64,000 nucleotides of DNA from Escherichia coli (lineage in GTDB: Bacteria > Pseudomonadota > Gammaproteobacteria > Enterobacterales > Enterobacteriaceae), in the NCBI RefSeq assembly GCF_002854065.1, contig NZ_CP024147.1, one strand, 5' to 3'. The position numbers were made by a program, and so were the translations under genes. Below the pieces are notes generated by a model. The model had not been told where the DNA came from, did no database searches, and was given only the letters and a program-made list of their open reading frames with translations. Positions 14,812 to 17,123 of this stretch are shown piece by piece. Every line of letters begins with the position of its first letter. Within the stretch, counting starts at the first letter, position 1.

Positions 14812-16149
14812 ATGAAAATTTACCGCCCACTTTGGGAGGATGGGGCCGCTCTGGCCCCGCAACAGTTCCAGCAGCAGGACCGCTGGAGTGAACACGTTGC
14901 CGACATGGTCGCCCGGATGGGTATTTCTCATCCCTGGGGCGTGGTGGTGGCAGAATTTGATGATGCTGCGCTGGCGCTCTCGCGCCTGAACGCCACCCGT
15001 CTGGTCGTACGTTTCCAGGATGGCACGATTGTTGATACGGATCTGGCGGATAATCTTCCGCCAGTCTGTGATTTATCCGCCGCAAATGGCTCCGAGGCTG
15101 TTGAAGTGGTTGCCGCACTGCCGCTGTTGAGCGCCAGTGGCGGCAATCTGGATAACGGTCAGGAGAGTGAACGTCCACGTCGCTGGAAAACGGAGCGCGT
15201 AGTGGTCCAGGAGCTGGCCGGACACGAAAGTGGTGAACTGGCCATTCTGCGTTACGCCATGACGCTTCGTTTGTCCACGCAGGAAAACACCGCTTATCTG
15301 ACCTGCCCGGTCGCCCGTCTGGTGCGTAATGCGCAAGGGCAGTGGCGTCGCGATCCCTCCTTTATCCCGCCGATGCTCTCGGTTGCAGCAAGCCCCTGGC
15401 TGGTAAGCGAAATGAGTGACCTGCTGGTCCGCTTGCAGGCAAGACGCAAGCGTTTGATGGCGATGCGGCGTGAAAGCAACGAACGGATGGCCGATTTTGC
15501 GGTCGCCGATGTCTCATTATTCTGGCTGCTTAATGCGCTGAACAGCGCCGAGCCGGTGCTCGCTGAATTACTGCAAACACCGGACCGTCACCCTGAGTTG
15601 CTGTACCGCGAACTAACCCGTCTGGCGGGCAGCCTGCTGACCTTCTCACTGGAGCACGACGCAGGCGATATTCCTGCTTATCAGCATGATGCACCGGAGC
15701 GGGTATTCCCACCGTTGCTGGCACTGCTCGACAAGCTGCTGGAAGCGAGCCTGCCGTCGCGGGTGGTGAGTATCCACCTCGAGCATCAGGACCAAATCTG
15801 GAAAGGCGCCCTGCACGATGCGCGCTTGCGTGAAGGGGCTGACTTCTATCTCTCCGTACGTTCATCCATGCCAAACCATGAACTTCAGACGAAATTCCCG
15901 CGGCTGTGTAAAGCGGGCAGCTTTGATGATGTTTCGGATGTGGTGAATGTGGCCCTGAGCGGGATGGTTATCAAACCGCTAACGCATGTTCCGGCCGCTA
16001 TCCCGTTACGCCTTGAGAACCAGTATTTCTCGCTGGATCTGAGTACTGAAGCGGCACGCGCGATGCTTGAGATGGGCAGTTGCACCTTCTATACCCCGCG
16101 CTCACTGGGGGATGTGAATCTTGAACTCTTTGCGGTGCTGCGCTCATGA
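14812..16149 (+). CDS. tssK: Type VI secretion baseplate protein TssK
   Basis: 445 aa; N-terminal motif PLWEDGAALAPQQFQQQDRW matches the TssK shoulder-domain signature. Confidence 0.75.
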   Translation: MKIYRPLWEDGAALAPQQFQQQDRWSEHVADMVARMGISHPWGVVVAEFDDAALALSRLNATRLVVRFQDGTIVDTDLADNLPPVCDLSAANGSEAVEVVAALPLLSASGGNLDNGQESERPRRWKTERVVVQELAGHESGELAILRYAMTLRLSTQENTAYLTCPVARLVRNAQGQWRRDPSFIPPMLSVAASPWLVSEMSDLLVRLQARRKRLMAMRRESNERMADFAVADVSLFWLLNALNSAEPVLAELLQTPDRHPELLYRELTRLAGSLLTFSLEHDAGDIPAYQHDAPERVFPPLLALLDKLLEASLPSRVVSIHLEHQDQIWKGALHDARLREGADFYLSVRSSMPNHELQTKFPRLCKAGSFDDVSDVVNVALSGMVIKPLTHVPAAIPLRLENQYFSLDLSTEAARAMLEMGSCTFYTPRSLGDVNLELFAVLRS

Positions 16150-17123
16150 ATAAACCCGAACTCAGCCAGATAGAACGTATCTTCTACCCAGGCTGGCTGA
16201 TGGCCAGCCAGTTGCGGAGCGGCCAGGAAGTTCGCGACGGGGAAGGGCTTTACCGCCGGGCTTGCCGTTTGGTGAAAGAGGCAAAAGCTGCGCTCATGGA
16301 GGCAGGCTACAGCGACATCAGCCGCGACCATATGGTGTATGCCTTGTGTGCGCTGCTTGATGAGAGCGTGATGAACAGGGGCACCACCGATGATGGCTAC
16401 CTGACCTGGCACCGAGACCCGCTACCCGGGAGGTCTGACATGGTGGATAAAACGCAGCATTACCGTAATCACTGGGCACAGTGGACGGTTGCCGAAATTA
16501 CGTTTGTGGAACAACACTATGGTCAGTTGGACGTGCGATTTTCAGGAGAAGCCAGCGAGCAGGGATTAACAACTTTTCTTGATGCTTTTGATGAGTCCAG
16601 TCACTGGGTTTTAGTTGTACCATTATCACCCGGCTTGCTTCCTTTTAAAAAATGCCGGGTAACAACGGCGGAACTGGCGGAAACAACATTACCCGCGTCG
16701 CAAGTGCTGGTGGTTGAAAATGAGCAGTGTTTGCATCATCTTCCAGCATTATCTGACACTATCGCGATTTTAGGCTGTGGCCTGGACGTGCAATGGCTAT
16801 CCAGTTCTGTTCTGGATGAAAAACGCGTTGCCTATTGGGGGGACATGGATAGCTGGGGACTACTGATGCTGGCGAGAGCCAGGCGTTGTCGTCCGACGCT
16901 TGATGCCCTGCATATGAACCGTGAGTTGTTTGAGCAGTATGTCAGTCATAGCGCCGTTCCAGAACCGGTCATAGCGAAGGAAGCTGTACCTGATGGCTTG
17001 CTTAACGAGGAGGCCGATTTTTATCGCTACTTAACCCGTTTACCGCGTGGTCGTCTGGAGCAGGAGTTTTTGCCTGTGGGGATTGCGGAAGAGGTGCTTC
17101 TCAGGTGGGGAAAAGAGAGTTAA
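16146..17123 (+). CDS. tssL: TssL/DotU-like N-terminal domain fused to an unrelated C-terminal segment; probably a chimeric or degenerate ORF
   Basis: N-terminal region carries the DotU-like ALCALLDESVMN motif; the rest of the 325-aa ORF lacks the expected C-terminal transmembrane anchor; start overlaps the tssK stop (ATGA). Confidence 0.5.
   Translation: MNKPELSQIERIFYPGWLMASQLRSGQEVRDGEGLYRRACRLVKEAKAALMEAGYSDISRDHMVYALCALLDESVMNRGTTDDGYLTWHRDPLPGRSDMVDKTQHYRNHWAQWTVAEITFVEQHYGQLDVRFSGEASEQGLTTFLDAFDESSHWVLVVPLSPGLLPFKKCRVTTAELAETTLPASQVLVVENEQCLHHLPALSDTIAILGCGLDVQWLSSSVLDEKRVAYWGDMDSWGLLMLARARRCRPTLDALHMNRELFEQYVSHSAVPEPVIAKEAVPDGLLNEEADFYRYLTRLPRGRLEQEFLPVGIAEEVLLRWGKES

Follow-up and report, generated by a model that had tools for sequence, protein, structure and literature searches.

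A probable deletion scar at the glcA-pheV locus of Escherichia coli that places the start of tssL in frame with the tail of jetD

A 325-amino-acid open reading frame (ORF) in the Escherichia coli window, by which we mean the whole stretch of 64,000 nucleotides that was analysed, begins like the type VI secretion system (T6SS) protein TssL and ends in a way that TssL does not. In E. coli the site of this ORF is bounded by glcA and the tRNA-Phe gene pheV. The ORF lies upstream of pheV with a gap of 360 nt, and pheV is followed in the window by yqgA, speC, nupG, mltC and mutY. Is this ORF a protein with an unusual architecture, or is it what a deletion left behind? The first-pass annotation, which was made from the letters of the sequence, had reported the ORF and had offered both answers: a fusion created when a deletion took away the remainder of the T6SS cluster, or a genuine unusual domain combination. 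The ORF was confirmed in the ORF list of the window, starting with ATG. We conclude, with a probability of about 0.93, that it is a decaying remnant of two successive deletions, which put the tssL start in frame with the tail of jetD, and that it does not represent a new type of protein. The features on which this reading is based are collected in Table 1.

Table 1. Features of the chimeric ORF and its surroundings, in window positions
Feature	Position	Strand	Evidence
Chimeric 325-aa ORF	16146..17123	+	ATG overlapping tssK stop; domain profile matches
tssL 5' fragment, codons 1-93	16146..16425	+	Profile match; comparison with PapRG-06-5; PDB 3U66 residues 1-95, E 3.5e-37
Junction 1, recent deletion, 3-nt TAC microhomology	16423..16425	+	Breakpoint mapping; identical 60-nt junction in 8 other loci
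Former intergenic DNA, 14 nt (CCGGGAGGTCTGAC), with Shine-Dalgarno GGGAGG of the next gene; in-frame aa 94-98	16426..16439	+	
Small island gene after vasL, first 30 codons (MVDKTQHYRNHWAQWTVAEITFVEQHYGQL), aa 99-128	16440..16529	+	
Junction 2, older event, GTT(G) microhomology: small gene / jetD codon 185	16526..16529	+	Comparison with Wadjet-positive locus
jetD 3' fragment, JetD residues 186-382 plus stop, aa 129-325	16530..17123	+	PADLOC JetD1; Pfam JetD_C; PDB 8Q72, 7TIL
tssB, frameshifted, 1-nt deletion after nt 65 (about 12782)	12717..13213	+	
tssC, intact ORF	13246..14793	+	
tssK, intact ORF	14812..16149	+	
tRNA-Phe (pheV), right edge of variable region	17484..17559	-	

Family assignment of the two ends

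The ATG of the ORF overlaps the stop codon of tssK (ATGA), which is the native start of tssL. The Pfam DotU model matched aa 11-93, and the NCBIfam TssL_short model (NF038239) matched aa 8-96 only, corresponding to profile positions 1-89 of 207, and scored 105.8 bits, the curated cut-off being 180 bits. The score for TIGR03349 was likewise below its cut-off (55.2 versus 89.95), and a full cytoplasmic DotU domain above the family cut-off was detected with neither NF038239 nor TIGR03349. Amino acids 1-95 aligned to the cytoplasmic domain of TssL from enteroaggregative E. coli (EAEC; PDB 3U66). Codons 1-93 encode the same amino acids as the intact 217-aa TssL of strain PapRG-06-5, and the fragment covers approximately the N-terminal half of the cytoplasmic domain (DotU). 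The motif ALCALLDE, which had led to the initial assignment, is located at aa 66-73 and the homology behind it is real; however, it extends over 93 residues, not the 150 or so that had been estimated. The missing C-terminal transmembrane anchor was borne out. No segment of the ORF had transmembrane-like hydropathy: the highest 19-residue Kyte-Doolittle mean was 1.32, inside the JetD part, compared with 1.98 at aa 189-207, the anchor of the intact PapRG-06-5 TssL. With 89 of 207 profile positions and no transmembrane segment, the ORF is not a full-length canonical TssL. Among the core T6SS genes, tssB (frameshifted), tssC and tssK alone remain at the locus; tssM, tssJ and the other core membrane and baseplate genes are absent from it.

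The remainder of the ORF matched JetD, the nuclease subunit of the type I Wadjet system (JetABCD). The PADLOC JetD1 profile aligned to aa 128-324 (profile positions 185-381 of 383, E 9e-100) and Pfam JetD_C to aa 148-317 (E 1.8e-40). Amino acids 127-325 aligned to residues 184-382 of the E. coli GF4-3 JetD(E248A) structure (PDB 8Q72, E 4e-128), with 98% identity between the C-terminal part and the GF4-3 protein, and this part also aligned to JetD of P. aeruginosa (PDB 7TIL). The sequence VVENEQ begins at aa 189 and GDMDSWG at aa 232. E191 aligns with E248, the position mutated in 8Q72, and D233 and D235 align with D290 and D292. By alignment, then, the VVENEQ and GDMD motifs are the predicted Toprim metal-binding and active-site residues of JetD (E248 and DxD). 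These acidic motifs had been described as weakly recalling an E...DxD arrangement; the arrangement stands, but "weakly" does not, since they correspond to the exact JetD Toprim residues. Nor is the C-terminal half a known T6SS accessory domain, as its match is to the Toprim domain of a Wadjet nuclease, which is not T6SS-related.

In JetD, an N-terminal arm/CAP ("aCAP") domain is flexibly linked to a Toprim domain (bioRxiv 10.1101/2023.11.03.565488). All full-length homologues carry PF11795 (DUF3322) together with PF09983 (JetD_C). A Pfam scan of the ORF gave no match to PF11795 (DUF3322, aCAP), and homology to JetD begins at residue 184/185. Moreover, jetA, jetB and jetC are absent within the annotated ±9 kb of the ORF.

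Two junctions and their ancestral loci

We compared the ORF with loci in which the T6SS cluster is intact. Homology of tssL to PapRG-06-5 and TB06052 stops at 16425, and homology to the region downstream of vasL begins at 16423 after correction for a 1-nt indel. The trinucleotide TAC is common to tssL (nt 278-280) and to the 3 nt after the vasL stop codon. A raw BLAST start at 16410 would mean that the last 12 nt of the vasL coding sequence had been kept; this candidate was rejected after the 1-nt indel correction. The homology before TAC, CA(C/A)CGAGAC, is only imperfect, and no vasL codon is retained. The deleted interval measures 29,514 bp (3968486-3997999 in the PapRG-06-5 record) and extends from codon 94 of tssL to a point immediately beyond the stop codon of vasL. 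The losses comprise the 3' half of tssL with the transmembrane anchor, an ompA-family gene, hcp, tssH and vgrG; lipase effectors with their immunity genes and PAAR genes; and tssM, tssA, tssF, tssG, tssJ, tssE and vasL. The 60-nt junction was identical in all eight chimera-bearing loci checked, and their flanks differ, which argues for a single origin. The breakpoints mapped against intact loci thus confirm that the fusion arose when the remaining genes of the T6SS cluster were deleted. The proposal of a deletion chimera needs one refinement: instead of a single event, the ORF records two sequential fusions and consists of four segments.

The second junction is the older one. The sequence GGGAGG is found 6 nt upstream of an ATG at 16440, which is in frame with tssL by chance. 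In T6SS-positive strains the equivalent ATG opens a 227-aa ORF (jetD') with its own Shine-Dalgarno sequence, which is intact in the three loci L002, L005 and L006. The first codons of this ORF derive from a small gene, of which an intact homologue, a 70-aa ORF, is present in ETEC H10407 (L008:5975-6187) right after another T6SS remnant; a Pfam scan of the 70-aa homologue revealed no significant family (best match RteC, E 0.23). Homology of jetD to the Wadjet-positive strain CX12 begins at 16526, and the microhomology GTT(G) occupies 16526-16529. We also considered aa 94-128 as the jetD N-terminus, brought in by an internal jetD deletion. This candidate was rejected: blastn-short of 16426-16525 against the Wadjet-positive locus gave no match, the JetD N-terminus is unrelated, and the segment matches the small gene in ETEC H10407. 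In the window, the strong Shine-Dalgarno sequence GGGAGG lies inside the chimeric ORF (16426-16442), and from its position a 227-aa product may start internally at 16440, besides or in place of the 325-aa fusion.

Two kinds of gene content alternate at this site. CX12, GF4-3 and eleven other genomes are Wadjet positive and carry full jetD (382 aa) at this position, with glcA followed directly by jetA, jetB, jetC and then jetD. In CX12 (L003, 8161-11448), the annotation splits jetC into a partial "ATP-binding protein" and an "SbcC/MukB-like" protein, which are separated by about 1.8 kb of unannotated sequence, and the Wadjet system of this strain may therefore be disrupted as well. PapRG-06-5 and seven others are T6SS positive and contain tad and fimbrial genes as well as T6SS genes, the latter forming a complete cluster from tssB to vasL. 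In these genomes a jetD fragment comes after vasL; in PapRG-06-5, which has the 227-aa jetD', pheV is directly next. On the left, both alternative contents begin at the end of glcA, indicating that jetABC and the 5' half of jetD gave way to the tad/fimbrial/T6SS block. In addition, five contigs bear the exact jetD' allele of the window (P0004), with its two lineage-specific changes (L to H and A to V), directly behind an intact vasL. This state is the immediate ancestor of the chimera, and the 29.5-kb deletion is recent and later than the island replacement.

According to our model, two illegitimate-recombination events took place at the variable glcA-pheV locus of E. coli. In the older event, a tad pilus/fimbrial/T6SS block would have replaced jetA, jetB, jetC and the first 184 codons of jetD in a resident type I Wadjet system. 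Its product would have been the 227-aa ORF, with 30 codons of the small gene in frame with jetD codon 185 and with its own Shine-Dalgarno sequence and ATG. The recent event would be the 29.5-kb deletion between the TAC in tssL codon 93/94 and the TAC after the vasL stop, upon which the tssL frame would by chance cross 14 nt of intergenic DNA into the 227-aa ORF and reach a length of 325 aa. We infer that the product, if made, would serve neither system. On the T6SS side, it would be left with half of a DotU domain, lacking both the membrane anchor and its partners (TssM, TssJ). On the Wadjet side, its Toprim domain would lack the aCAP part through which JetD docks on JetC, and the JetABC motor would be missing as well. 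The ancestral sequences could be identified for both breakpoints, and each junction shows microhomology. Together, these comparisons identify the ORF as a deletion scar. Its parts belong to TssL and JetD, and the ORF as a whole fails the defining tests of both families.

Signs of decay and alternative readings

A metagenomic locus (L019) carries the same tssL::jetD' junction with an intact tssB, whereas tssB is frameshifted in the window; the frameshift consequently came after the deletion. We then compared substitutions in five DNA sequences. Between the truncated clade and intact jetD there were 1-2 nonsynonymous versus 12 synonymous changes, while within the truncated clade jetD' showed 4-5 nonsynonymous versus 1 synonymous. 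The contrast of the two ratios gave a Fisher p of about 0.007, on small numbers. In the T6SS-positive strain 32F4 (L005, jetD' ORF from 20030), codon 135 carries a D-to-E change of the first DxD aspartate (YWGEMDSWG). Furthermore, the protein cluster includes truncated forms of 65 and 156 aa and many single-residue variants. These signs of decay lie in the direction that would be expected for a relic under relaxed selection. Against it, the ORF is uninterrupted, all Toprim catalytic residues are kept, and the native ATGA overlap of tssK and tssL would make translational coupling possible.

The last observations, which count against a relic, lend themselves to a second reading, namely that the fusion, or the 227-aa product from 16440, is expressed as a useful orphan Toprim protein with some activity. 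Candidate activities would be those of a stand-alone metal-dependent nuclease or nickase, or of a decoy that binds DNA or JetD. In favor of this reading, E...DxD is preserved in the intact ORF and a strong Shine-Dalgarno sequence precedes the ATG at 16440. The 227-aa ORF is also intact in most of the T6SS-positive strains sampled (several hundred contigs), which makes its predicted expression plausible. Toprim is the dimerization domain, and full-length MksG of C. glutamicum cleaves DNA alone in vitro (PMC10123090). On the other hand, E. coli JetD is inactive alone, and the contact between aCAP and JetC is required for restriction in vivo (bioRxiv 10.1101/2023.11.03.565488). The changes that followed truncation are mostly nonsynonymous, one of them in DxD (five DNA sequences, small numbers), truncated variants occur, and the remnants are 97-99% identical, so that their intactness may merely reflect youth. 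An active orphan protein is very unlikely, and that a Toprim fragment is made and dimerizes is to be rated just as low. Lower still should be placed the specific proposal that the Toprim-only JetD remnant, in its 227-aa or its 325-aa TssL-tagged form, would be an expressed, domesticated nuclease or a regulator or decoy, kept as useful after the T6SS island replaced the Wadjet operon.

A selected T6SS architecture, in which a TssL variant would have swapped its anchor for a nuclease-like accessory domain, is scarcely credible. The position of the ORF after tssK and its native start fit such a variant. However, only 89 of the 207 DotU profile positions are left, all core T6SS genes besides tssB, tssC and tssK are deleted, the junction falls in intergenic DNA, and the architecture was seen nowhere else, while an ancestor with an intact cluster was found. 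As judged by breakpoint mapping, the proposal of a selected variant is refuted. Nothing speaks for an assembly or sequencing artefact (such as a collapsed repeat or a mis-join), which is also refuted: two complete genomes share the identical junction with six other, independent assemblies and metagenomes, and the protein occurs on 145 contigs.

Distribution of the scar and comparison with known systems

The deletion scar is confined to one lineage. The whole ORF was present in 2 of 5,426 complete E. coli genomes (CUWW06 and 100416), and all of the contigs on which the identical protein is recorded are from E. coli. No protein combining TssL and JetD was detected outside this one E. coli lineage among 5.8 billion clusters. 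No protein outside the ORF's own cluster covered more than 70% of the query, and the rest were ordinary JetD, with DUF3322 and JetD_C. A genuine unusual domain combination can thus be discarded, given an architecture that is unique to this lineage and an ancestor that has been found. In the two complete genomes, RefSeq/PGAP records two partial pseudogenes, "DotU ... missing C-terminus" and "JetD domain-containing ... missing N-terminus". The finding is explained and ordinary, both fragments being already recorded as pseudogenes in RefSeq.

CUWW06, 100416 and the window are 99.97-100% identical over the junction and downstream, and their IS1-bounded upstream contexts differ in all three. In 100416 the fimbrial operon has been removed by IS1, and a CP4-like island is located at pheV. 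Copies of IS1 in the window lie at about 1556-2323, 8650-9419 and 44508-45040. The second copy truncates a TcfC-like fimbrial usher (ORF 9405-10058), and upstream of it a tkt/cmtA/speB/loiP region stands where glcA and the tad genes are located elsewhere; the usual place of tkt, loiP and speB in other E. coli is on the opposite side of pheV. The arrangement at 1-9419 suggests an inversion or deletion mediated by IS1, which CUWW06 and 100416 do not share. Adjoining the third copy, the GC content is low at 45001-47000 (0.42, then 0.32 with a GC skew of -0.24), and this stretch is probably a horizontally acquired segment.

Beyond annotation hygiene the importance of the ORF is slight. Gene callers without a pseudogene check label the 325-aa ORF as hypothetical or as a "putative type VI secretion protein", and through such calls false "TssL-Toprim" architectures could enter domain databases. 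The glcA-pheV interval also provides a worked example of a chromosomal hotspot that alternates between an anti-plasmid Wadjet system and a T6SS island, and of the loss of E. coli T6SS clusters through short-homology deletions, which occur repeatedly and leave fusion ORFs in frame.

Comparable scars are known from the same kind of cluster. In ETEC H10407 (L008, 5512-6187), an orphan "tssB" of 156 aa consists of approximately TssB 1-120 and the last 35 or so residues of VasL, fused at a shared RQ.xQLK motif; the whole T6SS cluster has collapsed to this one in-frame ORF, and downstream of it come the small gene, intact at 70 aa, and a PerC-type regulator. In TB06052 (L004, 20001-20765), a gene annotated as "tssL short form" (254 aa) is a fusion of TssL 1-186 with the peptidoglycan-binding motif from the C-terminus of the OmpA-family product encoded downstream. 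A second deletion extends past the end of jetD' (to window 17216), and the same locus has here decayed along an independent route. An independent, analogous scar is the tssG of ECNB21-M121, which is truncated by IS1. The H10407 and TB06052 fusions are independent deletions with other breakpoints and partners, and the present lineage alone reads into the jetD remnant.

With the short form of TssL/DotU, represented by the EAEC protein, the ORF shares residues 1-93, identical to those of the sister strain, as well as the native position after tssK and the native start codon. It differs in that its cytoplasmic domain is missing the second half, that it has no C-terminal transmembrane helix, that it scores under the NCBIfam cut-off, and that neither tssM nor tssJ lies beside it. 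With JetD (MksG/EptD) of GF4-3, it shares approximately 98% identity between aa 129-325 and Toprim residues 186-382, including the catalytic glutamate (E248) and DxD (D290/D292), and, with jetD of Wadjet-positive E. coli, a genomic position adjoining pheV. Unlike JetD, the ORF is without residues 1-184, the arm and CAP (aCAP, DUF3322) domain that binds JetC, and its locus is without jetA, jetB and jetC.
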